IMG/VR virus record: IMGVR_UViG_3300033463_000062
Coordinates: 26,109-90,108 of that record
Strand: one strand, 5' to 3'
Source of the DNA: a virus
Lineage: Duplodnaviria > Heunggongvirae > Uroviricota > Caudoviricetes
DNA length: 64,000 nucleotides
Shown here: in pieces, positions 10,526 through 59,493 of the stretch
Layout: every line of letters starts with the position of its first letter
Numbering within the stretch: position 1 is the stretch's first letter
Position numbers and translations under genes: made by a program
The notes under the pieces: generated by a model
The model's input: the letters and a program-made list of their open reading frames with translations, nothing else
The model's database searches: none
Told to the model about the DNA's origin: nothing

Positions 10526-10527
10526 GG

Positions 10528-10905: not shown

Positions 10906-10907
10906 TA

Positions 10908-11249
10908 ATGCAACCTATTAAAATTGTGAGAGGGACGTCAATGGATATTAACGTCACTATCAGAGACGCGAACGGTGATGTTGTCACTCTCGGTGAAGGA
11001 GAGTTTCTCCGTTTTGGTGTTAAGAAAGACGCGAGCGATACCGCGTATCTCATACAAAAGACGATAGACTCGTCGGCGCAGGTTGGCGACGGATATATAA
11101 TTTCGCTTATACCGAGCGATACGATGTCCTTGAATTTTGGACGCTATAATTACGACATAGGCTTACAGAGCGGCACCGACTACTATATGGTAGTTGATTG
11201 CAGCTGGTTCGACGTGGCGGCTAACATAACGAAATACGCCGCTGTTTAA
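10908..11249 (+). CDS. hypothetical tail-associated protein
   Basis: 113-aa ORF in tail fibre cluster. Confidence 0.45.
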   Translation: MQPIKIVRGTSMDINVTIRDANGDVVTLGEGEFLRFGVKKDASDTAYLIQKTIDSSAQVGDGYIISLIPSDTMSLNFGRYNYDIGLQSGTDYYMVVDCSWFDVAANITKYAAV

Positions 11250-11266
11250 ACAACAAGGAGGTTACT

Positions 11267-11782
11267 ATGCAATTAGAAACTGTAGTTGATACAAGGAACC
11301 TTAACGGTACTGTATCGACCTCCGAGCTTGACGGACGAGTTGTTACCACAAGAAGTCTCGCGGGAATGGCGGGGCTTGTTGTAATAGACGACGCTTTGTC
11401 GACAACGTCGATGAACCCCGTTCAGAACAAAGTTATAACCGACGCACTTGAAGCGGCAAAGGCGTTATGTGCGGCACCTTATAATAGCTCTGCAACGTAT
11501 GCTGTAGGCGATTATTGCATTTACAATAATATATTATATTGCTGCAACACCGCAATAGCAACGCCCGAGGCGTTCAACGGCTCTCATTGGACTGCGACTA
11601 CTGTCAGCGGCGAGCTGAAAACAGTAAAAAGCACGGTGTCCGGTCTTTGGCAGCCGCCCGCTTCTCCTGTAGCGGACGCTACGTACAGTCTTGTAAACGT
11701 GGTATCAGGCGGCACTCCGTCGTACTCGTGGGCAGAAGCTGTTACGTATGCTGAGCTGCTCGCAAACGAATGGGGCAACTAA
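11267..11782 (+). CDS. tail fibre-related protein sharing a conserved module with Tal
   Basis: RBS AAGGAGG; contains YAVGDYCIYNNILYCCNTAIATPEAFNGSHWT, near-identical in pattern to YAIGDYCIYSGYVYICSTTISTPEAFNLLHWT in the Tal ORF; C-terminus ELLANEWGN. Confidence 0.55.
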   Translation: MQLETVVDTRNLNGTVSTSELDGRVVTTRSLAGMAGLVVIDDALSTTSMNPVQNKVITDALEAAKALCAAPYNSSATYAVGDYCIYNNILYCCNTAIATPEAFNGSHWTATTVSGELKTVKSTVSGLWQPPASPVADATYSLVNVVSGGTPSYSWAEAVTYAELLANEWGN

Positions 11783-11797
11783 GAAAGGGAAACAAAC

Positions 11798-12121
11798 ATG
11801 ATTGTTATAAATGAATTTACGTTCTTCGACAACGCCGCAGCGGAAGGTTATAGCCCGGAACTCACCAACAACTATGGCGAAAGTCTGGTTTTAACCGTAA
11901 CCGGCAACTTTGTCGGAACTATCGAAATCTATGGAAAGAAGAACGACACGGCGTTTAAACTCGCTCTCGTTGATTTACAGACCATAACGATAATTGACGA
12001 TATTACCGCGCCCGGCGCATATACCGTTGTAAGTCCGTATGGTTTTTCTGAAATCGGAGCGGTTATATCGAGCTACACGAGCGGATCTGTAACCGTTACC
12101 GGCAGACTCTGCAAAAGCTGA
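11798..12121 (+). CDS. hypothetical tail protein
   Basis: 107-aa ORF in tail fibre cluster. Confidence 0.45.
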   Translation: MIVINEFTFFDNAAAEGYSPELTNNYGESLVLTVTGNFVGTIEIYGKKNDTAFKLALVDLQTITIIDDITAPGAYTVVSPYGFSEIGAVISSYTSGSVTVTGRLCKS

Positions 12122-12135
12122 GAAGGAGGTATAGA

Positions 12136-12324
12136 ATGTTAGACGACGCTTTATATCTCGCAATGATTGCCAAATCGAACGCGGGTGACATCACAATCGA
12201 AACACTGAACGTCTCGGCAGACGGCACATACAATGCCGGTGTCGGCAAAGCTTATAACCCCGTCATAGTAAATGTTGAAGACGGAGTATATGCAGAACTT
12301 TTAACTAAGAATTGGGGGAATTAA
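12136..12324 (+). CDS. small tail fibre-associated protein
   Basis: RBS GAAGGAGG; 62 aa; C-terminus ELLTKNWGN paralogous to end of 11267..11782. Confidence 0.45.
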   Translation: MLDDALYLAMIAKSNAGDITIETLNVSADGTYNAGVGKAYNPVIVNVEDGVYAELLTKNWGN

Positions 12325-12327
12325 CAT

Positions 12328-14256
12328 ATGCCTACAGATAAAGAAATATTTGAAGAAAAAATGGACGCTCTTGCCGACGCAATTAACGCAAAGTCCGGTT
12401 CGACAGGGGCAAAGAATCTTGACGCGCTTAGAACTACCGTTGAAAATATAAGCGTGGTCGACGAGGGAGCGATAGCCCCCGAATATGACGAGACTGTCGC
12501 GTATCAAATTGGCATTTTATTTTCATACGCCGGAAAATTGTATTACACAATAAAGAGCGCGCCTGCAGGGACTTCTCCGACAAACACAACGTATTTCCGC
12601 GAAGCGAGCGTTGCGGGCGACTTTATTTCCATTATAAAGATAACCGACACGGCGATTACGCTTGGCGACGTCAACAGCATTCTTAACGGAACGGGCGGTA
12701 TCAACCCGAGAGGGCTACATATAATGTTTGACGTCGGTGCGCTCGGCGCGTCAATGTATCTCTGCACGATTTATCTTGACACTACGACCAACGTATACAA
12801 GATATTCGACCTCGTTCTCGGCAGAGTTGCAGAAGGAACTTACGACGCCACAAAACTTCTGACGATGTGCATCGCTAACGCTGACGTCATTGCAACACAG
12901 CATCAGATAGACGCTTTGCAGAAAGAAATAAATGACCTCGGCGGCAAAACCGTTGTAGAGGACTGGGACAAGCTCGGCGATATGATTAAAGACGGCACGT
13001 CAACAAACGTCGTGAGCGCAGGCGATATAACTGACATCAACTGGATAGCGACTGTTATAGGTTCTACGACGAACGGTCTGACGGTCTCTTGCTCCAACAT
13101 AGACACGTTTGCTAACGGCATCGGAGAGGCAGAAGCAAAGACCTATCTGTTTGTATACAACGGCAGCGCGTGGACTTACAACGAACAGGCTGTCAACCTC
13201 GCAGATTACGCTATCACCGTGTCGGGAACTCCCGCAACGGGCGAGGTTATGACGATACAGACCACCGTTACGACCCGTTCCTACACCTTTACAGGATACG
13301 ACGACGTCGAAGCAGTCGACGCAAATGTGCCGCACAACTGGCTTATGGAACAGACTTACGCGCCCGATACAAAAACGTATGACGCTATCGAGGCTTGCAT
13401 GGTTCTCGCACAGGGCAAAACGCTTGCCGCGGGCAGCTATTACTGGTCGGCTCATTTGCAAGGCAGCGACAGTTTACAGACGAGATACTTTACGATATCT
13501 GCCGCTATAACCGCAATAAACGCGGACATTCAGTTTGCTCCGACCGCAACGAACTGGACTTCGCCGTATGTACCGACAAGCATGACGCCTTACTACAAAG
13601 GACAGACGACCGCTCTCGGCTCTGCTATCGCATTAAGCGCGGATGAAATATCCGGCGCGGTTGACGTTTCTACTGTCGACGGCGTATCTGTTCACGATTC
13701 GATTTATCAAATGGCATTCGGCTCTAACTGTTGGGCAAACTCCAATATAAGACAATGGCTCAACGATGATACGACAGGCACGTTTGTCGCAAAATCTGCT
13801 TGGGACAGACCGAGCGGATATAACTACGGCGCAGGCTTCCTGTTCGGTATTGATCCGAGAGTAAAGGCGTTGATTCAGCCCGCAAAGGTCAAGTGGACTG
13901 CCGGATATAACGCGGAAGGTTATACACAAGGTACGACGTATACTGCCGAAGATAAAGCGTTTCTGCTTTCGATGAAAGAAATGTCGTTCAATATAAATAC
14001 GGCAGAAGGTGAAATCAGCGATTTGTATGGAGAGTACACCAACAACACCCTTACAAACGATGCGGTTGCCGCCAGAGCGAAGTATAACAAAGCTGGTGGT
14101 ACGTTGAACTCGTATAGATGGTCTCGTTCGGCTAGCACTTCCCTCGCCAACTACGCTGGTATCGTCACATCGACTGGCACTAATGACGGCAGCAACGCGG
14201 GCCTCGCGCTCTACGTCGCTCCCGCTTTCATCATAGGCAAATCGACTAATCCGTAA
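12328..14256 (+). CDS. DGR target protein (putative receptor-binding tail fibre) with C-terminal variable repeat
   Basis: 642-aa ORF whose last ~38 codons (14121..14234) are the VR copy of the adenine-rich TR at 14829..14942; located in tail fibre cluster. Confidence 0.8.
   Translation: MPTDKEIFEEKMDALADAINAKSGSTGAKNLDALRTTVENISVVDEGAIAPEYDETVAYQIGILFSYAGKLYYTIKSAPAGTSPTNTTYFREASVAGDFISIIKITDTAITLGDVNSILNGTGGINPRGLHIMFDVGALGASMYLCTIYLDTTTNVYKIFDLVLGRVAEGTYDATKLLTMCIANADVIATQHQIDALQKEINDLGGKTVVEDWDKLGDMIKDGTSTNVVSAGDITDINWIATVIGSTTNGLTVSCSNIDTFANGIGEAEAKTYLFVYNGSAWTYNEQAVNLADYAITVSGTPATGEVMTIQTTVTTRSYTFTGYDDVEAVDANVPHNWLMEQTYAPDTKTYDAIEACMVLAQGKTLAAGSYYWSAHLQGSDSLQTRYFTISAAITAINADIQFAPTATNWTSPYVPTSMTPYYKGQTTALGSAIALSADEISGAVDVSTVDGVSVHDSIYQMAFGSNCWANSNIRQWLNDDTTGTFVAKSAWDRPSGYNYGAGFLFGIDPRVKALIQPAKVKWTAGYNAEGYTQGTTYTAEDKAFLLSMKEMSFNINTAEGEISDLYGEYTNNTLTNDAVAARAKYNKAGGTLNSYRWSRSASTSLANYAGIVTSTGTNDGSNAGLALYVAPAFIIGKSTNP
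14121..14234 (+). repeat. DGR variable repeat (VR)
   Basis: 114-nt gapless match to TR; 19 mismatches of which 17 correspond to adenines in TR (TR AAC codons become AGC, CTC, TAC, GGC, ATC etc. in VR). Confidence 0.85.
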
Positions 14257-18083: not shown

Positions 18084-19292
18084 TCATTCGCCGTCGGTAT
18101 TTTTGTAGTTATATACAGGACGTATTTTCTTTAGGATTTCCACGGTTGGTTCGATATTATCTACGATATCTGACATTGATTTGTATGCCATTGGCGATTC
18201 ATCTAACGTGTTAAAGCACACAGACGTGCTATACACTTTTGACATTCTTTCCTTGTATTCGTCAAGTGAAAGAGACTGCTTCGCGCTGCTCCTGCTTAAA
18301 ATCCTTCCGGCGCCATGTGGTGCCGAGCAGTTCCAATCGGGATTTCCTTTGCCTCGGCAAATCAGACTACCTTCTGCCATATTTATGGGTATAAGCAGAA
18401 TCTCTCCATTGTGTGCAGATACGGCTCCTTTGCGTAATACGTTGTCGTGAATATAATTGTGTCTCGTGGTGAATATGCTTATAGGATCAAACCCCATGTG
18501 GCTTCTGATTATTTCAAACATATCGTATCTATTTTCGTCAGCATAGTCCTGCACAATTTCCATATCGTGTAGATAATCGCGCATATCGTTTCCTGTAAGA
18601 TATGCCAACTCTCGTTGTACTTTTGGCTTTTCTGAATGATAACGCTTAAGCGTGCCTTCAATTTCAGATTGACGCCCCTCTTTCTTGAGCTGTTCGATAA
18701 TTGCTTTGATTTCGTTATATTTGACATCGTCATTAAGGCGTCTATACGCCAAATCCTGATAGTATTCGCACACCTGTTTCCCGAGATATCTGCTGCCAGA
18801 GTGTATAACGAGATATTTTGCTCCATTGTCGTCTTCGTCAACTTCGATAAAGTGGTTTCCGCCGCCTAAGGTTCCGAGTGATAGCATCGCACGGTCGAGA
18901 TTTATGCTATCTTTGCATATTAAATTTTCAAGTATCTTTCTGAAGTGTTGAGAGCGTTCGTAAACTTCGTTTCTGATGTTCATACCTGACGGAATATGTT
19001 GTCTGATCGTCTCGTCGAGTTTTTTAAAGTAGATTTCAGTTGTGTTTAACCCAACTGTCAGCATACCGCATCCGATATCAACTCCGACTAAGTTGGGGAC
19101 AACGTAGTCGTGTATTGTCATAGTTGTTCCTATCGTGCAGCCTGCCCCTGCGTGAATGTCGGGCATCATTCGAATTTTTGAATCTTTAACGAACGGCTGA
19201 TTCAGCAAATTCAGCACCTGTTTTATAGACTCCTCATCAACGCAGTCTGTAAAGATTTTTGCGTTGTTGTATTTTCCTGTAAGTTCTAACAT
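18084..19292 (-). CDS. rtcB: RtcB-family RNA 3'-phosphate/5'-OH ligase
   Basis: 402 aa with MPDIHAGAGC, GGNHF and HGAGR motifs characteristic of RtcB metal/GMP-binding sites. Confidence 0.8.
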   Translation of the reverse strand: MLELTGKYNNAKIFTDCVDEESIKQVLNLLNQPFVKDSKIRMMPDIHAGAGCTIGTTMTIHDYVVPNLVGVDIGCGMLTVGLNTTEIYFKKLDETIRQHIPSGMNIRNEVYERSQHFRKILENLICKDSINLDRAMLSLGTLGGGNHFIEVDEDDNGAKYLVIHSGSRYLGKQVCEYYQDLAYRRLNDDVKYNEIKAIIEQLKKEGRQSEIEGTLKRYHSEKPKVQRELAYLTGNDMRDYLHDMEIVQDYADENRYDMFEIIRSHMGFDPISIFTTRHNYIHDNVLRKGAVSAHNGEILLIPINMAEGSLICRGKGNPDWNCSAPHGAGRILSRSSAKQSLSLDEYKERMSKVYSTSVCFNTLDESPMAYKSMSDIVDNIEPTVEILKKIRPVYNYKNTDGE

Positions 19293-30908: not shown

Positions 30909-32090
30909 TTAAAATTTATGTTTTGTATAGATTTTAACATCTTCCGCGTATTTTGTATTTGACAAATATATATTATCAAAGTTGCGAGCCACGTCGCGGA
31001 CGGTGCAATTTCCAAATATCTCTTGGTTGGTGTAATTCAAGTGGGTTATAAACCCTGAAAATTTCACATTTGTATTTGTCGATTTCGCTTGGCTTTTGTC
31101 GTGCGCTATTCGTTTGTAAAACTCCTCATAATCAAAACGACCGTATCTGATGGTGCCTTGAAATTCGTTTGGTACATTCGTTTTGTCTTCAATTTCAGGA
31201 TTTATACCATTTTTATTACACTCTGTCTGAAAAAACCCTTCTCCGTGTCTTGTAAAATACGATCGGGTTACGTAACAGACCTCAACATTTGCGTTACAAT
31301 ATACCGTTTCATTAACAGGAAGTCGTGACGTTGTATCGCTTGCCGTAACGTATGGATAACATAACGTATTGTCGTCGCTCAGCGCAAGTCCCTGTGCGCC
31401 TTCGTAAACCACAGTGTCGTAGTTCGCGATTACTTCAAAAGGTCTTGTCTCTACGATATCTTGCATTAACATCAAGTCTTCCGAAAATCTTTCCGCTAAC
31501 GATTCTGAATACACGAGGTCTTTATATTCTGCGGGAATCTCGTATATGCCGTATTCTCGCAACCTTGCCGGTAAGTATTCGTGAGATATTACGCGAAGTT
31601 CTGTCATTATGTTGCCTTTTGACATCTTCTGGTAGTCGTTCCAACGCTGAGCATGAGTGTTAAAATATCTCATTCTCGTTTCCCATACACCGCAACCGCA
31701 CGACCCGTGCCGGTTGTCTCCGCGTGATTTCTCAACGATCTGATTTATAAACACATCATACGGCGTTGTAACCCTACACATAGGAGATATTTTGCACTTA
31801 GGAACATAGCCCATACCAACAAGACTTTGATATTCTTTTACAAAAACCGCGGGGTTTATCATAAAATCTCGGTCAAAGTAGTTGTCTGCACCAGAGAAGG
31901 TGCCGCTTCCTAAGTGGTGAAATATATGACGAACGCCGTTTTTTAGTTCAACAGTATGCCCTCTTTGACAACCGCCATTGAACAATACGTTTAAGACGTT
32001 GCCTTTGGCTTTGTCGCAGAAATATCTTGTCGCCAAGCCTTTTCCTTCGTCACCATAATTGGCACCGATTACTACTTTGACCTCAATCAT
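30909..32090 (-). CDS. adenylosuccinate synthetase (PurA) family protein; candidate PurZ-type enzyme
   Basis: 393 aa with GDEGKGL P-loop, GGCQRGHT, YEGAQGLALSDDNTLCYPYVTASDTT and YVTRSYFTRHGEGFFQTE blocks aligning to PurA [53 protein letters not shown]; the TTGRRRR aspartate/IMP loop of PurA is replaced (GTIRYGRFD). Confidence 0.8.
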   Translation of the reverse strand: MIEVKVVIGANYGDEGKGLATRYFCDKAKGNVLNVLFNGGCQRGHTVELKNGVRHIFHHLGSGTFSGADNYFDRDFMINPAVFVKEYQSLVGMGYVPKCKISPMCRVTTPYDVFINQIVEKSRGDNRHGSCGCGVWETRMRYFNTHAQRWNDYQKMSKGNIMTELRVISHEYLPARLREYGIYEIPAEYKDLVYSESLAERFSEDLMLMQDIVETRPFEVIANYDTVVYEGAQGLALSDDNTLCYPYVTASDTTSRLPVNETVYCNANVEVCYVTRSYFTRHGEGFFQTECNKNGINPEIEDKTNVPNEFQGTIRYGRFDYEEFYKRIAHDKSQAKSTNTNVKFSGFITHLNYTNQEIFGNCTVRDVARNFDNIYLSNTKYAEDVKIYTKHKF

Positions 32091-42316: not shown

Positions 42317-42741
42317 TTGTCATTTCCAAGCAACACAGCGATACTCCCCCGGTTTGACTCTAATTCCGCTTTTGACACACGAGGTGTCCGCATCATAACA
42401 AGGGTCTGTTGCTGTAACCGGCGTTTCGTCGTAATATCTTGTTCCGACTTCTATAGGTTTTAGCTTCATTTTGTTCTCCTTTGCATAAATTCGTTTATCA
42501 TAATCCTGTTTGTAATAAGCGGGGATGCGCCACTGCTTCCAGCGATGTTCTACCGCTACTTTGTCTTCACTCCCAACTGTTTCTCTGATGTCTTGCGTGT
42601 CTTTCTTGTGTTTTTTACCTCTTTTTCCACCATGATTGGTGTCATTTTTGCACCTTTTCCCCCTTTTTTAACGCGATTTCTTACCCGAAGCTTACTTTGC
42701 AACGCGCGTGCCAGACAGCTGGTCTTCCCGGGGTGTTCTTT

Positions 42742-42805
42742 TCGTCCTAACATTTTTATACGTCCGATAATACCGAACGCTTGGTTTCACCAAAATGCGA
42801 TTATG
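42742..42805 (-). repeat. conserved two-hairpin intergenic element, copy A
   Basis: 12 nt after stop of 42814..43116; minus-strand form AATCGCATTTTGG-UGAAA-CCAAGCGTTCGGTATTATCGGACGTATAAAAATGTTAGGACGA. Confidence 0.7.
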
Positions 42806-42813
42806 ATTTTAAA

Positions 42814-44913: not shown

Positions 44914-45186
44914 ATCGTTCTCCTCTAATGTAATCCAATAAAAGTGTGCTACAGCAGTTACTACCGATGTATTGGACTCAATTAACTCCGCCTACACCGC
45001 TCTGTGTGTTTCGTTTGTCAAAGTTTCTCGAATCTTTTTTTCCTTTTTTCTTTTCAAAGTCTTGATTTCTTGTACTCATTGTCGGTATTTCTTCTGCGTT
45101 TTAGCCAATTCTGACAGTTCTTTGCGATTTCTGTATCTATTTTGGCAACTGTTGCTATGTGCCCATAGTCTCCTCAGCTCGATCTG

Positions 45187-45250
45187 TCGTCCTAACATTG
45201 CGGTGCGTCCGATAAAACCGAACGCTCAACTTGCGTTGAAATACGATTAC
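45187..45250 (-). repeat. conserved two-hairpin intergenic element, copy B
   Basis: begins at stop of 45263..45784; hairpin 1 is CAAC-GCAA-GTTG. Confidence 0.7.
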
Positions 45251-45262
45251 ATTATAAAATGG

Positions 45263-47188: not shown

Positions 47189-47974
47189 TTATACTTCTGT
47201 ATAATAAACGCGTTCTTCTATCAACTCTCGTTGTTCAGTAAATATCGGTGGTTCTTCGTCTATCACCCACACGTTGGGAGTTTTAAATACGCAAACTCCG
47301 CGTTTAAAGGCTGCTGGTTGTTTATTGAAGTTTATATTATGCTGCGAAAATAGCATTTCCTGAATATCATTGCAAGATTTTTTATTCAGTTCTTTATGCG
47401 AAAAATAACATTGTCCGAGCATTTGTATGGCGTTTCTGGTTGCATCTTGCTGACGCCAAATAAAGTAGTTTGTGACTTCCTCTTTCGGCAGATTAAACAC
47501 TCTTGCATCGAATATAGCGCCCGTGGCGTTCCGGTATGCGTTAGCAAGTGAGTCTTCTTCCGCAGACGTGTGCCACGCTTCATCGTAATCGTCGAACCAC
47601 TTACCGGCTTCCTCGTCAAAAAACTTGGCGAAGGCGCTCGTTGCTATTGACGCAGCGACAGAACACATTTTTTGTATTCTGTAGTCGAACCAAGCGCTTG
47701 TCGAAAGCGTGTCATAATCAGTCAGAAGAAGAGATATTTCGTCACTTTGCGTGTATCCGAATTTGCATCCTTGAATATTCTGGCACAGATACTGAGTAGT
47801 GCGATTCATTGCATTATGAAAAACGCGATCATATGGCTTCGTAAAGTGTTTGGTGAAAGTGTGAAATGCTTTGCCGTCTATTCGGACTATCACAGGTGTT
47901 CTTCTTGATAAACGAGTTTCAGATCGTTCTTCATAAAACGACTTCATTCTATCCCCGAGCGAATCTTTTTTCAT
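47189..47974 (-). CDS. Thg1-like protein (tRNA 3'-5' nucleotidyltransferase family, TLP)
   Basis: ORF trimmed to MKKDSL preceded by GGGAGG RBS; motifs VIVRIDGKAFHTFT, GYTQSDEISLL, NYFIWRQQDA, FSQHNINFN align with Thg1 RLDGRNFHRF, GQSDEYSFV, YLSWRQADCH, FSEFNINYN. Confidence 0.75.
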   Translation of the reverse strand: MKKDSLGDRMKSFYEERSETRLSRRTPVIVRIDGKAFHTFTKHFTKPYDRVFHNAMNRTTQYLCQNIQGCKFGYTQSDEISLLLTDYDTLSTSAWFDYRIQKMCSVAASIATSAFAKFFDEEAGKWFDDYDEAWHTSAEEDSLANAYRNATGAIFDARVFNLPKEEVTNYFIWRQQDATRNAIQMLGQCYFSHKELNKKSCNDIQEMLFSQHNINFNKQPAAFKRGVCVFKTPNVWVIDEEPPIFTEQRELIEERVYYTEV

Positions 47975-51303: not shown

Positions 51304-51529
51304 CGTTCTCCTCCTTTTTATTTTTACACAATCCTAAGTTATAGATGGCGCCTTGACCAAGGAGTCCTCCTCGTCATCGAGATGCCTCGGTAATCACGTT
51401 TTTATACCTCTTTAGGGGGTCGTTTTTCACATTTTTTCAATTTATATACCCTTAATTTGAGGTTTCACCATCAGGATTACTTCCATCTCGGACTGCAGCA
51501 TCCTTCGGATCCTGATACCTGCTCCTTCT

Positions 51530-51593
51530 TCGTTCTAACATTTTTATACGTTCGATAAGACCGAACGCTTGCGTTTCCGCAAAATACGATTGT
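51530..51593 (-). repeat. conserved two-hairpin intergenic element, copy C (directly after recombinase stop)
   Basis: minus-strand form CACAATCGTATTTTGCG-GAAA-CGCAAGCGTTCGGTCTTATCGAACGTATAAAAATGTTAGAACGA. Confidence 0.75.
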
Positions 51594-51598
51594 GTTTC

Positions 51599-52585
51599 TT
51601 ATTTGTTAAGCTCATTCAAGAGCTCGTCTTTCGTTTGTAGTAATAATTCGTACAGCTCGTTGTTTGATACAACCTTAGGAGCCACAAGTTCATCGCCGTC
51701 CCACTTTCCAAGCGTAAAGTTGGACACCGCTTTCCTCGCTTCGTCGCACTGTTCTTTCATAATGCCAAGATACCGGCTCGTTGTCGTTGCGTTCTCGTGA
51801 TTTAACAACGTCTGAATTACCGCAAAATTCTTCTCGTTGATTGACGCGTCGTAAGTGCACTCAATAACCTTGACGAAAGTCTTTCTCATAGAGTGCGTTC
51901 CGAGGTGGGCTTCAATCCCGAGCGCTTTCTGCGCTGCAGTTAATATCTTGTAATACGCTTTCTCCGTGATGTGCTCGCCGCTTCTCTTGGTCTGGAATAC
52001 ATAGTCATTCAGGATTATTCCCTCGGGAAACAACTCGTTGACATATTCTTCCATAGCGGTCTTTATCGCCTCGGTTATCAGCGCATTGTTAATCTTTGTC
52101 GTTTTTTTCTCGAGCACCGGTATTCTCTCGCGGAACTCGTAGTCGTTGTTGTAAATGTGATAGAATTTCAAGCGAACGATGTCTGACGCTCTGACGCCGA
52201 GGTTACAACCGACCATCCACATTGTAGCGTTACGGATACCCTCAGGAGTTTTTTCCTTGAGCCAGTCATAAACACGCTTGAAGTCCGTGTATGAATTGAT
52301 TGCCTCAGATGCGGATGCAAGTTTCCGTCCGTTGACGTTAACACCGCTCAACATTCGTTCAGTTTTTTCTGCGTTCTCCTTGTCTCTTTTACCCTGACGT
52401 TCTTCTTTCGTCAAGACTTTTTTGTATTGACCGTTGTCGATTGCGTCAACCAACTCCTGATACTTTAACTCATAAGTCAGCTGCTTTCTCTTAGCTTTTT
52501 CGAGTTCTTTTTCGAGGTAGTCGATTTGTATCTGGCGTTCCATTGCAATCTGCTGCCAGTCAACCATTACCCTTGTTTCTTCCAT
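51599..52585 (-). CDS. tyrosine recombinase / integrase family protein
   Basis: C-terminal catalytic region with HSMRKTF (HxxR) and NATTTSRYLG (catalytic Tyr); R...K...HxxR...Y pattern. Confidence 0.65.
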   Translation of the reverse strand: MEETRVMVDWQQIAMERQIQIDYLEKELEKAKRKQLTYELKYQELVDAIDNGQYKKVLTKEERQGKRDKENAEKTERMLSGVNVNGRKLASASEAINSYTDFKRVYDWLKEKTPEGIRNATMWMVGCNLGVRASDIVRLKFYHIYNNDYEFRERIPVLEKKTTKINNALITEAIKTAMEEYVNELFPEGIILNDYVFQTKRSGEHITEKAYYKILTAAQKALGIEAHLGTHSMRKTFVKVIECTYDASINEKNFAVIQTLLNHENATTTSRYLGIMKEQCDEARKAVSNFTLGKWDGDELVAPKVVSNNELYELLLQTKDELLNELNK

Positions 52586-52970
52586 TTCGATCCCTCCGTA
52601 TTCCTTTGTACTAAAACATTTCTTCTGTGCCCTCTTGCGTCTAATATAATCAAACGCGTCTTGCCGACCATATTTAGTCTGCTTAGGTATCTTTTCAATA
52701 CTTAAGGGAAGACTATGAATTGTTCACACAATCCTATGAGAATAAAAACGGTTCTGCCCACAGGGTGCCGGCATCCAACTTTGTTTGGACATTGTTCGAT
52801 TGTGTCCATTTCCTACGCTTAATTGGGAAATCTTTTTTAACTTTTTACTTCTTTGAGGTTCGTTTTTCTTGATTTCCACCCTTTCTTCATTGCGACGGTT
52901 GCTCTCGAATCTTCATTCCCCGTGTGACCCCAGACGACGTTCTTGAGATCCTGATCTGCCTCCTGATCTC

Positions 52971-53035
52971 TCGTCCTAACATTTTTGTACGTTCGATAAG
53001 ACCGAACGCTCAGCTCTTGCTGAAATACGATTGTG
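52971..53035 (-). repeat. conserved two-hairpin intergenic element, copy D (upstream of recombinase, after stop of 53039..53266)
   Basis: hairpin 1 CAGC-AAGA-GCTG, hairpin 2 CGTTCGGTCTTATCGAACG. Confidence 0.75.
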
Positions 53036-53038
53036 CTT

Positions 53039-53266
53039 TTATCTTTGGACAAACTCGCAAATCTCACCCGTCTCAGGATTGTAAAGCTCTCCCGAGAACA
53101 TAAGCGGGACGTTGTATGCAAGTCTGCATTCTTTCCTGATACGATATTTTAAATTGGCGACTGCTTTTCGCGGCGTTTCCGCAAGTGTTGTTGCAACGTA
53201 GTTGTTACGCGTAATCAATGTTCCGTCACGCTCAACTCGTCCTGTAAACACCCATTTTTCTTTCAT
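53039..53266 (-). CDS. hypothetical protein
   Basis: 75 aa. Confidence 0.4.
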   Translation of the reverse strand: MKEKWVFTGRVERDGTLITRNNYVATTLAETPRKAVANLKYRIRKECRLAYNVPLMFSGELYNPETGEICEFVQR

Positions 53267-53362
53267 AAGTTACCTCCAATTGTGGTTCGAAAACTTAATC
53301 TCATGAGAAACTTCCATTCTGGAAGTTTCGCATCTGATTAAGTTTTGAACGATATTTGTTGT

Positions 53363-53412
53363 GTTTTACGTTCGGTAAAACCAAACGCCCGTTTTCTAAA
53401 CGAAATATTCGT
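53363..53412 (-). repeat. diverged copy F of the two-hairpin element (directly after RT stop)
   Basis: retains ACGTTCGGTAAAACCAAACG (hairpin 2 analogue) and CGTTT-AGA-AAACG (hairpin 1 analogue). Confidence 0.5.
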
Positions 53413-53418
53413 AACTTT

Positions 53419-54558
53419 TTATGCGCTCTTTATTGCGCTTATTATCGTGTCGTACACATTCTTGTTGAACTTCAACGACAGCTTATTCAGAATCTGTTCT
53501 ACGGCTTCCTTTTCAACCATTCTACAATAGTTCAGGTTGCCGAGCATTTCCTGCAACTCTCCGAGTTCCCATTTTTCTTCCTTTGCATCGGACATCATAA
53601 ACGAGAACAGCGTTGCTTTCAGGATCTTCTTTCTCTTATAGCCGACCGTAATGTTACCGTCTTTATTCAGCATAAGACCAAGGTTCCAGTTGCGACCTGC
53701 CGATGAACCGTATCTCGTCTTTTCTGCGTTCAGACTGAACGGCGTTTCCCATTTCGCAAGCGTGTTCTTGAGAAACGTCTGAACTTCCGTCCACTTAAAA
53801 TCATACTCGGAAGTTATTGTGATATCGTCTGCATATCTCGTATAGACGAGGTGCGGCGTGTGTTCGCGGCACCAACGCGCTATCTCGAGGTCGAGCGGTA
53901 TCATCATGATGTTAGTTATCATCGGGCTAATCGGACTGCCCTGCGGAAGTCTGCCCTGATACATACATATATCCAGAGCCTTCTCGAAATACTCTTTGCC
54001 TTTTACAGAAGTTAATATCTCGTTGTACGGATATATCATTGAAAACATTTTCAAAACAAATTCTTTCGTGGTGTTCGGGAAGAACTTGGAGAAGTCAAAC
54101 TTAGCAAACCACCTCGAGTGGTTGCTCTGATGACGTTGCATCGCGTATAGACAACATCTATGCGGAACGTATGCAAAGGCACAAGTATGATACGGTGCGC
54201 CGATTATATTCTCGAATATAAACTTGAGTTGACGCTGCGCGTTCTTCAGTTCTTCGTCAGGCTTATCTATCTGTCTGTGTCCACCAGACTTCTTCGGTAT
54301 ATTGTACGGATGATAATGACTGTCGATTCCGCTCTCGAACAGTTCTTTGTGGTTTTCGATGAAGTTGTGGAGCGCGTCCACCATCTTTGTCAACTTCAGA
54401 TTCGCTAACATTCTTATCGGAATTTCTTCCGTCGTGAATGTTACTGTGTCGTATGTGTTTCTGTCGGGCATTAGAGCCGACTCTGTGACGCCGTTGATTA
54501 CGTCCCAAGCAGTTATCTGCTTTTCGCGCTGCTTTTTTGCATAAGTGATATAATACAT
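53419..54558 (-). CDS. reverse transcriptase (non-DGR; retron/group-II-like RT domain without maturase or RNase H)
   Basis: 379 aa; motifs SGGHRQIDKP, RLPQGSPISPMITN, YTRYADDITI (YADD box). Confidence 0.8.
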   Translation of the reverse strand: MYYITYAKKQREKQITAWDVINGVTESALMPDRNTYDTVTFTTEEIPIRMLANLKLTKMVDALHNFIENHKELFESGIDSHYHPYNIPKKSGGHRQIDKPDEELKNAQRQLKFIFENIIGAPYHTCAFAYVPHRCCLYAMQRHQSNHSRWFAKFDFSKFFPNTTKEFVLKMFSMIYPYNEILTSVKGKEYFEKALDICMYQGRLPQGSPISPMITNIMMIPLDLEIARWCREHTPHLVYTRYADDITITSEYDFKWTEVQTFLKNTLAKWETPFSLNAEKTRYGSSAGRNWNLGLMLNKDGNITVGYKRKKILKATLFSFMMSDAKEEKWELGELQEMLGNLNYCRMVEKEAVEQILNKLSLKFNKNVYDTIISAIKSA

Positions 54559-54811
54559 TTTCCCTTTTCCTTTCTTTACCTATCCTATGAGGTTTTGAAT
54601 GCCCCTTCAAGCTTCTGAAGTTGATGTCTGGCACTCGTGTCGAGATAAATTTTTATTAAAATTAGAACTTTTTTGGATTATCTTCGCCAACTTTATTTTT
54701 TTAATTGGGAATCTAACTTCACTTTCTGGTTTTGTTTTGCCATTTTTTCTTGCGCAATGCCTCTGCACCTGTTGCTGCGTCACCAGCTCTGACTCCTCGT
54801 CCCAGTCCTCT

Positions 54812-54875
54812 TCGTTCTAACTTTGTGTTGCATCCGATAAGACCGAATGCTTTGCTTTCGCAAAAATGCGATAGG
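54812..54875 (-). repeat. conserved two-hairpin intergenic element, copy E (between RNase H and RT)
   Basis: hairpin 1 TTTGC-GAAA-GCAAA; hairpin 2 GCATTCGGTCTTATCGGATGC with a compensatory G-C to A-T change relative to other copies. Confidence 0.7.
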
Positions 54876-54876
54876 T

Positions 54877-55305
54877 TTATAATGTTTGTCCTGTTGCGAG
54901 GAAATCGCATCTTTCGTTGTACTGATTTCCCGCGTGTCCCTTCGTCCATTCAAACGTCACATTGTGAATGTCGAGGATATTCAAAAGTTCTTCCCACAAA
55001 TCTGCGTTCGCTGCGGGTTTGTTGTCTTTTTTGTACCAGCCGCGTTCTTTCCACGACTGTACCCAGCCCTTTCCGATTCCGTCAACAACGTACTTACTGT
55101 CCGTTATCAGCTTGACCGAACACGGTCTGTTCAGAGCGTTCAGCGCGTTGATGACCGCCGCGAGTTCCATACGGTTATTCGTCGTGTCTTCTTCGGCTCC
55201 GAAGATCTCCTTGACTTTATCTCCATATTTCAGTACGGCTGCCCAACCGCCCTTGCCGGGATTTCCCGAGCAGGCTCCGTCGGTATAAATCTCCACGTTT
55301 GTCAT
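54877..55305 (-). CDS. rnhA: ribonuclease HI
   Basis: 142 aa; [10 protein letters not shown]...E...D...[11 protein letters not shown] catalytic DEDD-type RNase H signature. Confidence 0.8.
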
Positions 55306-56042
55306 AACTCGTCAATCCTGAACTGGAATGGGTTTACGTAAATCATTCTTTTCAGTTCTCCTTTCTTTACAAAATTTATAAAGTTGCAAACTCCTACGTT
55401 GCAAACTTCTCTCACCGTTGGTGCGACTCCGAGAACAACTCCGCACGCAGACACCGGTGTTGCTTCCGCAGCTTCTTCGTGAGAATAGTTCATCGTCTTG
55501 AGATAGTTTATGACGTCTTTCATCTTGCCCCACTCGGAAGCGTAATGCATAGCGTCCTCAAGCCGTGTTCTGAAATCAAACACCGCTTTTATTTCTGTGT
55601 TATATTTGTTTGCCTCGCAAATTTCTCTGCGCAGGTCTATATTGTCAACCGCAAGGAACACATATCCGTTGAGCGGTTGTTCTGTATACTTGCCCAGAAC
55701 TTCAACCTCGACCTCGGGGTTGATGTCTTCAAGCATTTTCTTCACCTCTGTCGCTTTGTCCTCTCCGACCGAATGCGAGAAGAACATCTGATTGGCGATA
55801 TTGTGTTCTTCCACAAGGTCGAAATCATACAGAGAAAATTTCCTTACTCCGAGCCTCGCAAGATTTTCTGCGAGCGTTGAGCCAACGGAACCGCATCCGA
55901 TTATGTGACACGTTCCGTCAACTTTTTCAGGGGCAAAGTATTCGTAGCTCTTCTGTAAGTTCATAACCTTCGTCCTCCCATTCTCTTTCGCGCAGATACC
56001 ATAACTCTGCGTGCGCCGTCTCAGCTTCTTCTTCGTCGCCAT
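55302..56042 (-). CDS. E1-like (ThiF/MoeB family) adenylating enzyme
   Basis: Rossmann GxGxxG (IIGCGSVGS), [14 protein letters not shown] motif of ThiF/MoeB/E1, downstream Cys (VSACGVV); likely start at internal Met MNLQK (55964), overlapping JAB gene. Confidence 0.7.
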
Positions 56043-56634
56043 ATAACAGGATTGGCAGGAGTTTCACTGCTTTTTCATACGGCGACATTTCTATCATTTC
56101 TATCGTTCGCTTCGGTATAAACGGTTTGACAAGTTCTTTGGCGTTCTTTAAGAACTCTGTCGTATCATATTCTCCGGTCGTGTCGAACTCCACGTCAACC
56201 TCTTTGTTCACGTAGAGTTTGCCGTTCTTTATGTCGTTTATCTGAACTGTAAACTTACCGCTTTTGTTGAATATCATAAAGACGTAGAACACGTCGTCAA
56301 CAAACTCGGCTTTCGGAAGATTTTTCAAAATGTTCTCCCGATATGTCATATCAAAACCCGAGGGGGTTGGCGTCATGTTCACATGAGAATGACCGTGCAT
56401 TCTCAATGCGTTGAACTGTTCATCCGGTAGAGTGTCGAGCCACGCTTCGTACTCTTTCTGGTCGCTCTCTACGTAGGCTCCGGAAGCCTTGTGTGGAAAA
56501 ACAAGTATGTCTTCCACAACAAAACCGTCATCAGTTCTGTTAACAATACCGTGCCATTCGACCTCGGTATCGAATCCCGCAAGCAGTGCGGCAGTCTTTT
56601 TAAATGCTTTTGCATTAAATTTAAGACTCGGCAT
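55927..56634 (-). CDS. JAB/JAMM-family metalloprotease (deubiquitinase-like)
   Basis: exact JAMM motif H-x-H-x7-S-x2-D in MHGHSHVNMTPTPSGFD, preceded by conserved Glu. Confidence 0.7.
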   Translation of the reverse strand: MPSLKFNAKAFKKTAALLAGFDTEVEWHGIVNRTDDGFVVEDILVFPHKASGAYVESDQKEYEAWLDTLPDEQFNALRMHGHSHVNMTPTPSGFDMTYRENILKNLPKAEFVDDVFYVFMIFNKSGKFTVQINDIKNGKLYVNKEVDVEFDTTGEYDTTEFLKNAKELVKPFIPKRTIEMIEMSPYEKAVKLLPILLYGDEEEAETAHAELWYLREREWEDEGYELTEELRILCP

Positions 56635-57904
56635 TGGATTGTTCCTCCTTGTTTATTATTTTCACGAGCTCGCCCGGAGTGATGATTGAACCGTCGGGCA
56701 TTAAAATACACCTCTTATTGCTTCTCATACTCGTTATGAACTGCCTCATCGCCGCGCTGTCGTCAATGTTGATGTTTCTCGTTGCAGCGATTGCCTGTTC
56801 AATTCCCATGTCCCATTCTCCGGCGGCATTATAGTTGTTGAGCTCCGCCGCATTTGTTCCGAGGCATCCGAAGGCTATCAAGTGCGGATGCGAAATTGCG
56901 TTCATGTCGTCTTCAGCCGCGCCTTGTACCACTCTTACGACACCTTCTTTGGTTATCAAAAACCTCGAATACACTTTGATTTTTGCCTTTTTATTTACCA
57001 AGCAATACTTGAGAACTTTTCTCAATTCGGGGCTTGCGCTGCCGAGAATGGTGTTCGGATTGTCTATATAGCGTCCTATTTTGTCGCTATAGTTCTGGAT
57101 AGTTTCGCTTATCGTGAACGTGATGTCATCAGAACTGTATGTTGATATCCGCAACTGTTTATGTTGCTTGAAGAATTTAGCCAGATCTGAGCTATCTCCG
57201 TGAGAACCGAGAGATATCGCTCTGACGGCTTCCTGAAGAGACCGGAGGTTTTCATACTTGGCAGTCAATTGTGATGTCAATTCATAAATCTCGTCATTCA
57301 GATTGGCAATCTGACTCTCGAGATGATTGTATGTTGTCAAACTTGGGTCGATTTTGAATGCCGCAAATGCCTGATTCGCGACCTTTTCCTCAAGATTTCC
57401 GAGCTTTCTGTCAACCAGAGCATTCGTTATCTCGATGATTTTTCCCTCATCTTTTGCAATCAGGGCGTTGATGAACGCCTTGTCTTCTTCGTCGAGAGGG
57501 GTGGGGGAGAGCCACGGAACTAACTGCGGATACACGGTGATTAAGTCCATCGCAGCCTTGTTGTCGCGGTGGTTATAATGATCGCCCGTCATGAATATCT
57601 GTGTCTGTTGCTGATCATTGTTGCGGAGAACGACTACGTTATTCCCGCAGAATTTCCTAAGATATTGCTCTATAGGCGCACTTGCGGTATTCAGCCTCTC
57701 CCAGCCGTCGTAAACGCCAGTCGGCGCTTGCATATACCTGAATTGAATGTATCCGCTGTAATTGTCGGATACCAGCGATTTTGTTGGCTTGATGTCGTTT
57801 TTGATATATAAATACCTACCGACAATCGTATAAACATTGCTTAAACTCGAGCGTGCTGCATAGTCTCTATCAAGCAAATGACTTAAGATTTTTATGTCCA
57901 TCAA
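56621..57904 (-). CDS. hypothetical protein with possible C-terminal E2-like motif
   Basis: 427 aa; C-terminal SHPHLIAFGCLG resembles E2 HPN-x8-Cys active-site signature; first gene pair of operon with Ubl-like ORF. Confidence 0.4.
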   Translation of the reverse strand: MMDIKILSHLLDRDYAARSSLSNVYTIVGRYLYIKNDIKPTKSLVSDNYSGYIQFRYMQAPTGVYDGWERLNTASAPIEQYLRKFCGNNVVVLRNNDQQQTQIFMTGDHYNHRDNKAAMDLITVYPQLVPWLSPTPLDEEDKAFINALIAKDEGKIIEITNALVDRKLGNLEEKVANQAFAAFKIDPSLTTYNHLESQIANLNDEIYELTSQLTAKYENLRSLQEAVRAISLGSHGDSSDLAKFFKQHKQLRISTYSSDDITFTISETIQNYSDKIGRYIDNPNTILGSASPELRKVLKYCLVNKKAKIKVYSRFLITKEGVVRVVQGAAEDDMNAISHPHLIAFGCLGTNAAELNNYNAAGEWDMGIEQAIAATRNINIDDSAAMRQFITSMRSNKRCILMPDGSIITPGELVKIINKEEQSNAES

Positions 57905-57935
57905 CTCTCCTCCTTTCTGTTTTATTTATCTCGTC

Positions 57936-58172
57936 TCAGGCTCCGTCGCCCTTAACGACTGATGCGAGAACCACGTCCTCGTCTTCTTCTACGCCGAGTT
58001 CGGCGAATGTCTTGTCGAAATCTCCGTCATCGAGAACCACGCCGCAAAGCGTTACCTGATTTCTCGTGGACGGTGTGATACCGAAACCAGCGAATACGCT
58101 GCTCGGCGTTGAATTTATATCCTCAACGATCTGCTTACGGATATTGTTTGTTTTAAACGTGATCGAAATCAT
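57936..58172 (-). CDS. small beta-grasp/ubiquitin-like candidate protein
   Basis: 78 aa, MISITFKT... start and acidic region resembling ubiquitin-fold proteins; C-terminus KGDGA (no free GG). Confidence 0.3.
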   Translation of the reverse strand: MISITFKTNNIRKQIVEDINSTPSSVFAGFGITPSTRNQVTLCGVVLDDGDFDKTFAELGVEEDEDVVLASVVKGDGA

Positions 58173-58250
58173 TTTTCATTCTCCTTTTTTGTTTTTTAGA
58201 ATTGGGCTCCGTCGCATTCTGTCACGCGGCGGAGCCGCTTTGTGTTTCGC

Positions 58251-58676
58251 TTATAAAATGTTGATCGAGTTTATAAGCGTCGTTCTTGCCTCGCGAACTT
58301 CTGCGAGTTTCGCGGGGGCTGCCTGCTCGACCGCTGCGAGCTTTACGGGGATTTCCCCAAGTATGTCTGCAACGGTCTCTTTGAGAGCGTCTGCAGTCAT
58401 ACCCTCAGTTCCCTCGAGCGTTACGGAGAGGGTCGCGAAGCCGCCGTTTGAAGTTGCTCCGAAAGTTACACCCTTTTTCGTGAGATTGCCGTTGCCCGAA
58501 GAATAACCGACACCGAATGTCTGGTTGCCGTCAGCGTCGAATAACTTCAACGCGTCCGGATCGTACTTCTTCAGCATTTCAATCTCCTCTACCGTGAGGG
58601 AGCTTGTGACGACGAGAGCGTCACCGAGAACAGTAATGCGCATTCTTTTTTCCTCCTTAAATATATATTTAGGCAC
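58251..58676 (-). CDS. hypothetical protein
   Basis: 141 aa, possible start at MRITVLG. Confidence 0.4.
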   Translation of the reverse strand: MPKYIFKEEKRMRITVLGDALVVTSSLTVEEIEMLKKYDPDALKLFDADGNQTFGVGYSSGNGNLTKKGVTFGATSNGGFATLSVTLEGTEGMTADALKETVADILGEIPVKLAAVEQAAPAKLAEVREARTTLINSINIL

Positions 58677-59087
58677 TTAACCTACTCTTATTAGTCCACC
58701 AAAGGACGGTTTTATTGCGATGCTTCCGAACTCCGAAAACGTCGGCTCCGTGCAATTATACACGTAAGACATGGCGTAGCCGTCCGAAATATCATCGTTA
58801 TCGAGCCTCCATTCTTCTTCATCTCCACTTACGTAGAGAATTGAGTAAAGCTCACCGAATTCTGTGTTATTGTGGATTGCGTGATAGGGCAACAAATCGG
58901 GATAGCTTTTCTTGAACTCGTCGAGAATTTTCGTGAGTTTTTCGTCTGCCCAATACAAGGCGCCTATCCATTCTGAGAAATTGATTTTGCCTTCTTTGTC
59001 GAATTCTTTGATTGCGTTCTTGTGAAGCTTAAGCTTCCTCATACGGCTTATCGCTTCAGCCTTTTGGCGTTCCTGAAACGTGGTCAT
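58677..59087 (-). CDS. hypothetical protein
   Basis: 136 aa. Confidence 0.4.
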   Translation of the reverse strand: MTTFQERQKAEAISRMRKLKLHKNAIKEFDKEGKINFSEWIGALYWADEKLTKILDEFKKSYPDLLPYHAIHNNTEFGELYSILYVSGDEEEWRLDNDDISDGYAMSYVYNCTEPTFSEFGSIAIKPSFGGLIRVG

Positions 59088-59232
59088 TTTTGTTCTCCTT
59101 TTTTATAAAATTTTGAAACACCTTTCTGAAACGAGTGCGCGTTGCCGAGAGGTCAAAGCAAGAGGCTGTTTCTGTCTCCGTAGTGTTTCGTGAGAGCTCG
59201 TACTCAACGTGGTAGCCCCGGGTGACTACATG

Positions 59233-59318
59233 TTGGCAGGAGTTGCAGGATTTGAACCTGCGAATCTTCGGACAAAGCCGGAGTGTTTCCGAATGTGTTA
59301 ACCGCTTCACCAAACTCC
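59233..59318 (-). tRNA. tRNA-like element 1 (86 nt, perfect acceptor and T-arm, encoded CCA, non-canonical anticodon region)
   Basis: minus strand AGGAGTT/AACTCCT 7-bp acceptor, D-arm GTG-AAGCGGTTAA-CAC, T-arm GCAGG-TTCAAAT-CCTGC, then G-CCA; central region forms CGGA-AACAC-TCCG hairpin rather than a 7-nt anticodon loop. Confidence 0.4.
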
Positions 59319-59493
59319 TATATGGCGGGCTTAAGGTCACCCGAATCCGCACATCCGATTATGCACAATGTGATAACGGTGCACCTCCACATCGTGCGCT
59401 GACCCAATCGGCGTGACGTCAGTTTGTACTGTCCTCTGAATAGCTAATTCAGAAACTGCATACACTTTTCGTCAGTTTTGCTCGTAACGGCAC

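Follow-up and report, generated by a model that had tools for sequence, protein, structure and literature searches.

A Probable Phage-Encoded Ubiquitin-like Conjugation Operon Conserved with a Retron-Type Reverse Transcriptase and Its Candidate Template RNAs

We describe a stretch of tailed-phage DNA in which genes for a ubiquitin-like protein (Ubl) and its putative conjugation enzymes stand next to a retron-type reverse transcriptase (RT). The stretch, hereafter the window, comprises 64,000 nucleotides of the IMG/VR record IMGVR_UViG_3300033463_000062 (positions 26,109 to 90,108; Caudoviricetes). Its minus strand encodes, in order, a small protein called p141, the Ubl, an E2-like protein, a predicted JAB metallopeptidase and a minimal E1-superfamily enzyme; the RT and several RNA units follow. 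On balance, we consider it probable that the Ubl-conjugation operon and the retron-type RT and RNA form a single conserved functional block. Both halves have relatives in bacteria. Bacterial Ubl conjugation (Cap2/3 of CBASS, the cyclic-oligonucleotide-based anti-phage signaling system; Bil; Bub) has so far been encountered as a means by which hosts resist phages, and the retrons described are bacterial defence elements with a single RNA and effectors of nuclease, nucleoside deoxyribosyltransferase, protease or TIR type.

A first-pass annotation of the window, made from its letters alone, had read the region as an operon of Ubl, candidate E2, JAB and E1. That reading holds, with the gene order Ubl-E2-JAB-E1: the four minus-strand open reading frames (ORFs) and all the motifs it quoted are present where it placed them, and the four genes abut or overlap, making an operon structure plausible. 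The span that it assigned, 55302-58172, is too narrow, leaving out the p141 gene before Ubl and a ribonuclease HI (RNase HI), an RNA unit and the RT after E1.

The block emerged from comparison with other genomes. Searching the ORFs of GTDB and IMG/VR contigs with the window proteins revealed the same conserved series, p141-Ubl-E2-like-JAB-E1-RT. When the RT was used as the seed, at least 557 IMG/VR matches were obtained, and the best 80 were examined; among these, the block lies immediately upstream of the RT in all 75 loci that have upstream sequence. When the JAB was the seed, the RT was present in 50 of the 51 loci that contain E1 and have room downstream, and in about 25 JAB-seeded loci it starts just 13-14 nucleotides past the E1 stop codon. 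ORF clustering across 89 loci placed the block genes in 72-89 loci, whereas no flanking family exceeds 52 of 89; the flanks vary. The window has only the block genes in common with the GTDB/IMG loci, except for two small ORFs, each of which recurs in two loci. The first-pass annotation had pointed to a phage RT and a recombinase as neighbors of the operon. The RT is indeed a conserved member of the block, but the tyrosine recombinase is not conserved with it. RNase H occurs in only 12 of the 89 loci, placed before or after the RT.

Two features of the junction between E1 and RT deserve mention. The close spacing of 13-14 nucleotides is seen in a clade of loci (L122-L146, L157 and L158; for example L122, with thiF at 6795-7463 and RT at 7477-8622), and a covariance model run on two members, L122 and L130, detected no RNA unit. 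In 33 loci, extra genes lie between E1 and RT, among them a gene of about 268 codons (for example L084:5816-6622) whose product by eye resembles the DUF6273 proteins found beside the block in L019-L022.

The 78-residue protein is ubiquitin-like, with a predicted beta-grasp fold and a flexible C-terminal tail. A profile search retrieved 203 relatives, all of 78-80 residues and none annotated. An AlphaFold model based on an alignment with 55 relatives (predicted local distance difference test score, pLDDT, 83) contains strands at residues 2-7, 12-17, 39-42, 45-47 and 66-72, helices at 23-29 and 49-53, and a disordered tail at 75-78. Its structural matches are ubiquitin, SUMO, FAT10 and BilA, and the beta-grasp that had been suggested from the sequence is thus predicted with good confidence. 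A sequence-profile search of the PDB with the Ubl family, by contrast with the fold comparison, gave only noise or coiled-coil matches.

The C-termini of these proteins are informative. Among 175 distinct sequences, 116 end in KADGA, 28 in KADNA and 5 in KGDGG, the rest being close variants; the conserved end is K-x-D-[GN]-[AG], whose last residue is Ala in about 95% of the sequences and Gly in about 4%. It is followed by no further residue in 27 sequences, including that of the window, by one in 45, by two in 83 and by three in 10. In eight IMG/VR loci (L065, L068, L071, L073, L078, L100, L103 and L105; for example L073:1726-2346), the Ubl is fused at its C-terminus, through ...VVKADNAA, to a p141 domain; these loci lack a stand-alone p141 gene. 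Dispensable residues, or an entire fused protein, behind a conserved end classically mark a Ubl precursor that is cut by its own peptidase. Precursor cleavage of this kind has been demonstrated for BilA by BilC (PMC10557695) and for BubAB by the JAB of BubCD (PMC11601596). The p141 fusions and the variable tails of the phage proteins imply cleavage by the JAB at K-x-D-[GN]-[AG]. It had been supposed that a Ubl ending in KGDGA would need a processing step or would have to give way to a different Ubl. That supposition can be set aside: the sequence is an instance of the family's conserved end, and the window Ubl already has the trimmed form.

The fusion partner itself, p141, adjoins the Ubl or is fused to it in almost every related locus. 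No Cys or His is conserved in it, and scans of Pfam, NCBIfam and PADLOC gave no family match. Comparison by hhalign with E2, JAB, Ubl and both halves of the 427-residue E2-like protein gave no signal (P 0.1-0.6). A role as adaptor, chaperone or substrate is possible.

The 235-residue protein is the candidate for the peptidase implied by the Ubl precursors. Its JAMM motif is exact, as had been noted: H82-S-H84-x7-S92-x2-D95, with E24 upstream. All five residues are invariant in nine relatives that are 36-41% identical, and we estimate the chance expectation of the pattern in a protein of this size at about 4e-4. The only PADLOC matches are JAB models (E 0.016 for the window protein; best 0.0011 among relatives). 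Alignment by hhalign to Rpn11, CSN5 and BRCC36, whose sequences were entered by hand, spans 87 columns and keeps every catalytic residue in register (P 0.0019, as compared with P 0.1-0.6 for unrelated controls). Pfam returned nothing for the JAB family, and a PDB sequence-profile search with it returned noise. By its sequence, and with the motif conserved in full, the protein is a predicted JAMM/MPN+ metallopeptidase. The window protein is without the N-terminal extension of about 90 residues and the acidic C-terminal tail rich in Gly, Ser and Tyr that most relatives carry (for example L005:6112-7050). Its C-terminal segment differs from that of the relatives, and its gene overlaps the start of the E1 gene by 38 nucleotides.

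The ORF of the E1-like enzyme, 55302-56042, is over-extended. Because the gene caller uses M27 and all relatives begin MNLxKS, the start is almost certainly M27 at 55964, giving 220 residues. The motifs are G23-C-G25-S-V-G28, D47-F-D49, H54-N55 and D107-N108...R112, and the GxGxxG and DFD motifs, Lys70, D107-N108, R112 and C174 (in TPVTAC) are invariant in the family, a set that includes the ATP/Mg residues; by its position, C174 could be the crossover-loop cysteine. Pfam ThiF matches at E 2.6e-20. PADLOC Cap2 E1-E2 models match at up to E 3e-18, on the Rossmann half of the enzyme only (its residues 41-126). Residues of about 15-120 are the only part that aligns to known E1s, forming one Rossmann adenylation domain. 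A family profile searched against the PDB gave UBA5 (1.4e-14), UBA1, MoeB (1.3e-12), UBA6, MccB and TcdA, with ThiF (1.4e-9), Cap2 (1.4e-9) and BubCD (2.7e-6) lower down. Because UBA5 and UBA1 head this list and the biosynthetic NCBIfam models for ThiF and MoeB all score far below their cut-offs, we take the enzyme, judged by sequence, to be a divergent minimal member of the E1 superfamily and not an orthologue of MoeB or ThiF. Grouping with those biosynthetic enzymes had been considered beforehand as a possible outcome; in addition to the profile matches, no cofactor-pathway partner genes lie nearby.

The 427-residue protein is probably E2-like, although this is not established. The gene caller places its start at the ATG at 57901, the probable start, giving 426 residues. 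Only three matches were found among 5.8 billion sequences, and at least four when an alignment of 54 family sequences was the query; a profile built from the three retrieved 1289 cluster representatives of about 450-490 residues. The HPHLIAFGC sequence that had been proposed as an E2-type motif occupies residues 339-347. Across 54 family members H341, C347, G349 and D382 never vary, P340 and N351 hardly do, and the conserved C-terminal residues can be written [HN]-P340-H341-x5-C347-x-G349-x-N351 ... W364 ... Q370 ... D382. In an AlphaFold model (pLDDT 91), the loop bearing the His and Cys is preceded by a helix (239-247) and four strands (251-256, 260-268, 308-318 and 323-325) and followed by three helices (349-361, 364-376 and 383-393), an order of predicted elements that is that of the UBC fold.

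Matches of the C-terminal domain to the UBC/RWD fold are weak to moderate; they include RWD domains, FANCL and kinetochore RWDs, the E2s Ube2C/S, Ubc12, Ubc13, Ube2W and Ube2S, and the ubiquitin E2 variants Tsg101 and Mms2. In hhalign comparisons with six eukaryotic E2s, again entered by hand, a single alignment was obtained, which put HPH...C347L...W364 on HPN...C85L...W93 of UBE2D2 (P 0.056). Searches of family members against Pfam and PHROGs gave no family, a single-sequence viral scan gave nothing, a PDB sequence-profile search gave noise or coiled-coil matches, and Foldseek found no match for the model in the PDB. The motif, its invariant Cys and the weak to moderate fold matches favor the E2-motif proposal; no Pfam or NCBIfam E2 family recognizes the protein.

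Turning to the other half of the block, retron models give the RT its best matches (NCBIfam retron St85 RT, E 1.1e-56; PADLOC RT_II-A, E 2.2e-53). It keeps the residues most conserved in these regions of retron RTs, the region X His and the region Y Gly, although its motifs read xAxxxH and NLG rather than NAxxH and VTG. In L006:8102-9496 and L019:13554-14927, about 80 extra residues are inserted in the fingers of the RT, immediately ahead of the IPKxxGG motif.

The RNA unit directly upstream of the RT has two strongly covarying hairpins: pairing holds at 94.8% of positions, and compensatory changes occur in 11 of 14 pairs; when the pairing partners are slid as a control, 31-53% are paired. A covariance model then located 80 copies from 67 sources; every copy lies on the coding strand, and individual phages have several. 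Five confident, co-oriented copies lie in the window (units A-E), each starting within 10 nucleotides of the stop codon of a different upstream gene. The units share two covarying 5' hairpins, an a1/a2 stem, flanking Gs and a conserved box, AAAUGUUAGGACGA. In unit A, a1 is ACCTATC and a2 GATAGGT, with a G after a1 and a G before a2; unit B has CACAATC/GATTGTG and both flanking Gs. More generally, the 8-13 nucleotides that immediately precede the first hairpin are matched by an exact complement (at least 8 nucleotides) 230-380 nucleotides downstream in 44 of 69 units, versus 1 of 69 in each of two control windows. The a1/a2 sequences vary widely between units, whose median length is 306 nucleotides; the G after a1 and the G before a2 are both present in 48 of 51 units, against a background G frequency of 21%. 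Unit interiors are not conserved, their variable parts match nothing else in the window, no single long msd hairpin is evident, and Rfam has no family for the units.

Retron msr-msd transcripts are described as having inverted repeats at their ends, two G residues that face each other and, at the 5' side, between one and three hairpins (PMC7736814). We kept the retron-type reading of the units because of the a1/a2 distance test and the double-G test. Other identities were tried and rejected. A single retron RNA upstream of the RT was dropped once the covariance model had found co-oriented copies elsewhere; terminators do not fit, there being no run of T after the units; miniature inverted-repeat transposable elements do not fit, all copies being on the coding strand with a1/a2 differing between them; and the match to the GTTRRRY sequence of attC-like sites is imperfect. 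Judging from the sequences, we conclude that these phages appear to carry a retron-type RT together with several candidate template RNAs. In one locus (L109:7302-8095), three units stand in tandem between E1 and RT, at a spacing of about 340-380 nucleotides, and a fourth follows the RT (9535-9611), showing that units can form arrays.

What might such a block do? From its parts and from Bil and Bub biochemistry, we infer the following steps. The JAB would expose the Ubl C-terminus at K-x-D-[GN]-[AG], removing one to three trailing residues or, in the fusions, releasing p141. The 220-residue E1, probably a homodimer like UBA5, MoeB or BubCD, would adenylate that C-terminus and then hold the Ubl as a thioester on Cys174. 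The Ubl would pass to Cys347 of the E2-like protein, whose N-terminal domain and coiled coil probably pick the target, and would be joined to a target lysine, a step that the JAB could reverse. The RT would copy part of the RNA units, of about 300 nucleotides, into reverse-transcribed DNA (RT-DNA), aided in this phage by its own RNase HI. Finally, the complex of RT, RNA and DNA would work jointly with the Ubl machinery, whether as sensor, as regulator or as substrate, much as other retrons pair with an effector; the direction of this coupling, the target and the biological role are likewise matters of inference. Because the relatives of both halves are conflict systems, and because some loci lie in neighborhoods rich in RNA-repair and tRNA genes, a function in conflict is favored. 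We lean toward virus-host or virus-virus conflict, and the role could be superinfection exclusion by a temperate phage or counter-defence.

Several observations weigh against this picture. Three loci, L017 and L018 (on a 499-kb contig) and L147, have the five-gene core without an RT; in the first (9475-13129), an RNA unit still follows E1 (13128-13197), and genes for nicotinate phosphoribosyltransferase and NAD synthase come next. The sampled loci could all belong to one broad phage lineage, in which case the linkage would be partly inherited. The RNA units are not specific to the RT, as they also follow other genes, and the RT itself scores 192 bits against an NCBIfam retron St85 cut-off of 235. 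On the conjugation side, no Pfam or NCBIfam model for Ubl, E2 or JAB matches the Ubl, the 427-residue protein or the JAB; the Ubl usually ends in Ala, with Asn as the penultimate residue in about 18% of members, and not in Gly-Gly; where the canonical E1 motif N-L-x-R-Q has its Arg, the whole family has Asn (HNLANQ); and no target, E3 or toxin-like effector is recognizable.

Some of these points would be explained if the Ubl operon worked alone, with the RT and RNA units a separate module and their adjacency a matter of common descent within one phage lineage. The loci without an RT fit such an arrangement, as do the RNA unit that separates E1 from RT in most loci, the occurrence of the same kind of unit after unrelated genes, and the 33 loci with extra genes between E1 and RT. 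We nevertheless judge it unlikely: the linkage of the two halves holds in 75 of 75 and in 50 of 51 loci, against a background of flanks that turn over, the RT follows the E1 stop codon by 13-14 nucleotides in about 25 loci, and only block genes are common to the window and the other loci. Of about the same low probability is a different division of labor within the operon, in which the 427-residue protein is an effector or scaffold rather than an E2 and the Ubl is transferred directly from E1, as in the archaeal SAMP/UbaA system.

A further reading has the Ubl machinery and the retron acting directly on each other. In one form of it, the Ubl, or Ubl-p141, would be conjugated to the RT/RT-DNA complex or even to the nucleic acid. 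The E1 superfamily includes MccB and TcdA, which activate carboxylates for non-protein acceptors. We regard such direct action as distinctly improbable, and slightly more so than the two alternatives just discussed. If true, the several units, which stand at the 3' ends of phage operons, would give rise in the course of infection to multiple RT-DNAs carrying protein tags, and phages would be using protein-nucleic-acid tagging against hosts or rival phages. Least probable of all, and in our opinion very unlikely, is a sulfur-carrier pathway of the ThiS/MoaD, QbsCDE or TtuB type, in which the trimmed Ubl is thiocarboxylated and donates sulfur to the modification of a nucleic acid or cofactor. 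No rhodanese, cysteine desulfurase, thiouridylase or partner of ThiG/ThiH/MoaE type occurs in any locus; the Ubl ends in D-[GN]-A rather than GG; its top fold matches are ubiquitin, SUMO and FAT10; and an E2-like protein with an invariant Cys occupies the slot that E2 has in the Bil order. The reading that we prefer is that of a Ubl-conjugation cascade forming one block with the RT and its RNAs.

The features of the block in the window are collected in Table 1. The window is part of a tailed-phage contig of about 90 kb, and the identical sequence was recovered as L003 (90,043 bp). Its proteins include a tape-measure protein, a minor tail protein, a large DNA polymerase, a DnaB-like helicase, a primase, RtcB and a PurZ-like enzyme. 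A megablast search of the region against 50,697 deposited phage genomes (INPHARED) gave no match, so it has no close relative there. The related loci lie on IMG/VR viral contigs of 45-140 kb and on contigs of metagenome-assembled genomes, the latter labeled Christensenella, Clostridia, Eubacteriales, Lachnospiraceae and Bacillota, with one Bacteroidales bin.

Table 1. Block genes and retron-type RNA units in the window (positions are those of the 64,000-nucleotide stretch)
Feature	Positions	Strand	Remarks
p141, 130 aa	58251..58643	-	directly upstream of Ubl in nearly all related loci
Ubiquitin-like protein, predicted beta-grasp, 78 aa	57936..58172	-	C-terminus K74-G-D76-G77-A78 (...VVKGDGA)
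E2-like protein (probable), 426/427 aa	56621..57901 (ORF to 57904)	-	N-terminal domain, central coiled coil, C-terminal UBC/RWD-like domain
JAMM/MPN+ (JAB) metallopeptidase (predicted), 235 aa	55927..56634	-	E24, H82, H84, S92, D95
Minimal E1-superfamily adenylating enzyme (predicted), 220 aa	55302..55964 (ORF to 56042)	-	Pfam ThiF; invariant C174
RNase HI, 142 aa	54877..55305	-	NCBIfam ribonuclease HI, 206.8 bits vs cut-off 160
Retron-type RNA unit A, 299 nt	54578..54876	-	directly upstream of RT; a1/a2, two covarying hairpins, conserved box
Retron-like RT, 379 aa	53419..54558	-	NCBIfam retron St85 RT, PADLOC RT_II-A
Retron-type RNA unit B, 309 nt	52727..53035	-	covariance-model match, 38.3 bits
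Retron-type RNA unit C, 270 nt	51326..51595	-	immediately after recombinase stop codon
Retron-type RNA unit D, 329 nt	44926..45254	-	covariance-model copy
Retron-type RNA unit E, 311 nt	42497..42807	-	covariance-model copy

The RNase HI start codon (55305) abuts the stop codon of E1. A promoter and terminator scan of 52500-59400 was uninformative: it gave one weak minus-strand terminator-like site, a 6-bp stem within the JAB gene, and the total of terminator-like sites was not clearly above that in shuffled sequence. Farther along, the tyrosine recombinase gene (51599-52585, minus strand) has unit B upstream and unit C immediately downstream, and a 75-codon ORF between RT and unit B (53039-53266, minus strand) is common to L011 and L012 only, at 33% identity. 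RNA-repair and tRNA genes are present in the window (RtcB, 18084-19292; a Thg1-like gene, 47189-47974; tRNA-Arg CCG, 59234-59319), and related loci have RNA ligase and KTI12/AAA_33 genes and, immediately upstream of the block, a DUF2828/DUF7788 gene (511 residues). Elsewhere, a 393-residue minus-strand protein (30909-32090) matches PHROG 1211, the PurZ-type family resembling adenylosuccinate synthetase (E 2.8e-61), which hints that the phage may substitute 2-aminoadenine for adenine in its own DNA.

If our reading is correct, the block would be a widespread phage-encoded Ubl cascade, as judged from at least 557 IMG/VR relatives of the RT and 1289 cluster representatives of the E2-like protein. 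It would add a new association for retrons, with a conjugation cascade as the partner, and would provide a retron-type RT with several template RNAs per genome. The system allows one to ask how an RT product relates to protein tagging, and a Ubl of 78 residues and an E1 of 220 are very small parts for mechanistic and engineering work. Searches of full texts turned up no paper tying retrons or phage RTs to E1, JAB or Ubl genes; subscription journals lay outside their coverage, and a prior description is possible.

Among known systems, the antiphage Bil operons (BilABCD, types I and II) are the closest in layout. In Bil, the gene order is Ubl-E2-DUB (deubiquitinase)-E1 (PMC10557695), identical to the order Ubl-E2-JAB-E1 found here. 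The trimming logic is also alike, with zero to three extra residues or fusions, although in Bil the DUB exposes a C-terminal Gly and the phage Ubl ends in Ala. The Bil E1 consists of inactive adenylation, active adenylation and catalytic-cysteine domains (IAD-AAD-CYS), whereas the phage E1 is a single adenylation domain of 220 residues. Also unlike Bil are the size of the E2-like protein (427 residues, with an additional N-terminal domain and a coiled coil), the extra p141 gene and the linkage to an RT; and Bil lies in defence islands, whereas the present block is phage-encoded. Pfam, NCBIfam and PADLOC give no match to the four proteins beyond the E1 Rossmann domain and weak JAB hits, and PDB profile searches did not list BilA-D. 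We do not regard the block as a member of Bil, given an E1 without the IAD-AAD-CYS layout, a Ubl with Ala at its end and the absence of detectable sequence homology.

Bub provides a second parallel. There, a JAB peptidase frees the Ubl from a fusion protein, cutting at a conserved C-terminal residue (PMC11601596). The 220-residue E1 and Ubl-p141 resemble the minimal, homodimer-type E1 and the cleavable Ubl fusion of Bub. Bub, however, uses Ser/Tyr oxyesters, with no catalytic Cys in E1 or E2 (PMC11601596), whereas C174 of the E1 and C347 of the E2-like protein are invariant here. Bub also has the DUF6527 serine protease BubE and a JAB-E1 fusion; in the window and the related loci there is no DUF6527 match, JAB and E1 are separate, and the fusion partner, p141, has no E2 similarity. 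Type II CBASS combines a CD-NTase and an effector with Cap3 and the Cap2 E1-E2 fusion; here there is neither CD-NTase nor effector, E1 and E2 are separate, and the Ubl is a dedicated one. Sulfur-carrier systems (ThiS/ThiF, MoaD/MoeB, QbsCDE) have a Gly-Gly end and partner genes, as opposed to D-[GN]-A and no such partner in any locus.

Operon class 6d of Iyer, Burroughs & Aravind 2006 (PMC1779556) is a mobile-element set, of PRTRC type, of Ubl, JAB, small E1 and E2-like protein with an extra uncharacterized protein, as here; in class 6d an alpha-helical protein belongs to the set. On the phage E1 the PRTRC ThiF model reaches only E 9.5e-7 (28 bits; cut-off 145). None of the PRTRC, Prok-E2, Prok_Ub and Prok-JAB models matches, and there is no ParB. 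In class 6d, moreover, the His is C-terminal to the Cys, whereas in the phage protein it lies upstream of the Cys.

Finally, the block resembles retrons in an RT that matches retron models best, units with a1/a2 repeats, opposing Gs and 5' hairpins, and adjacent accessory genes. None of the 13 retron types has a ThiF or ubiquitin partner (Mestre et al. 2020, PMC7736814), whereas the accessory genes here are those of a putative Ubl-conjugation cascade. And where a retron normally has one RNA, the present system is phage-borne and has several units per phage genome, sometimes in tandem.

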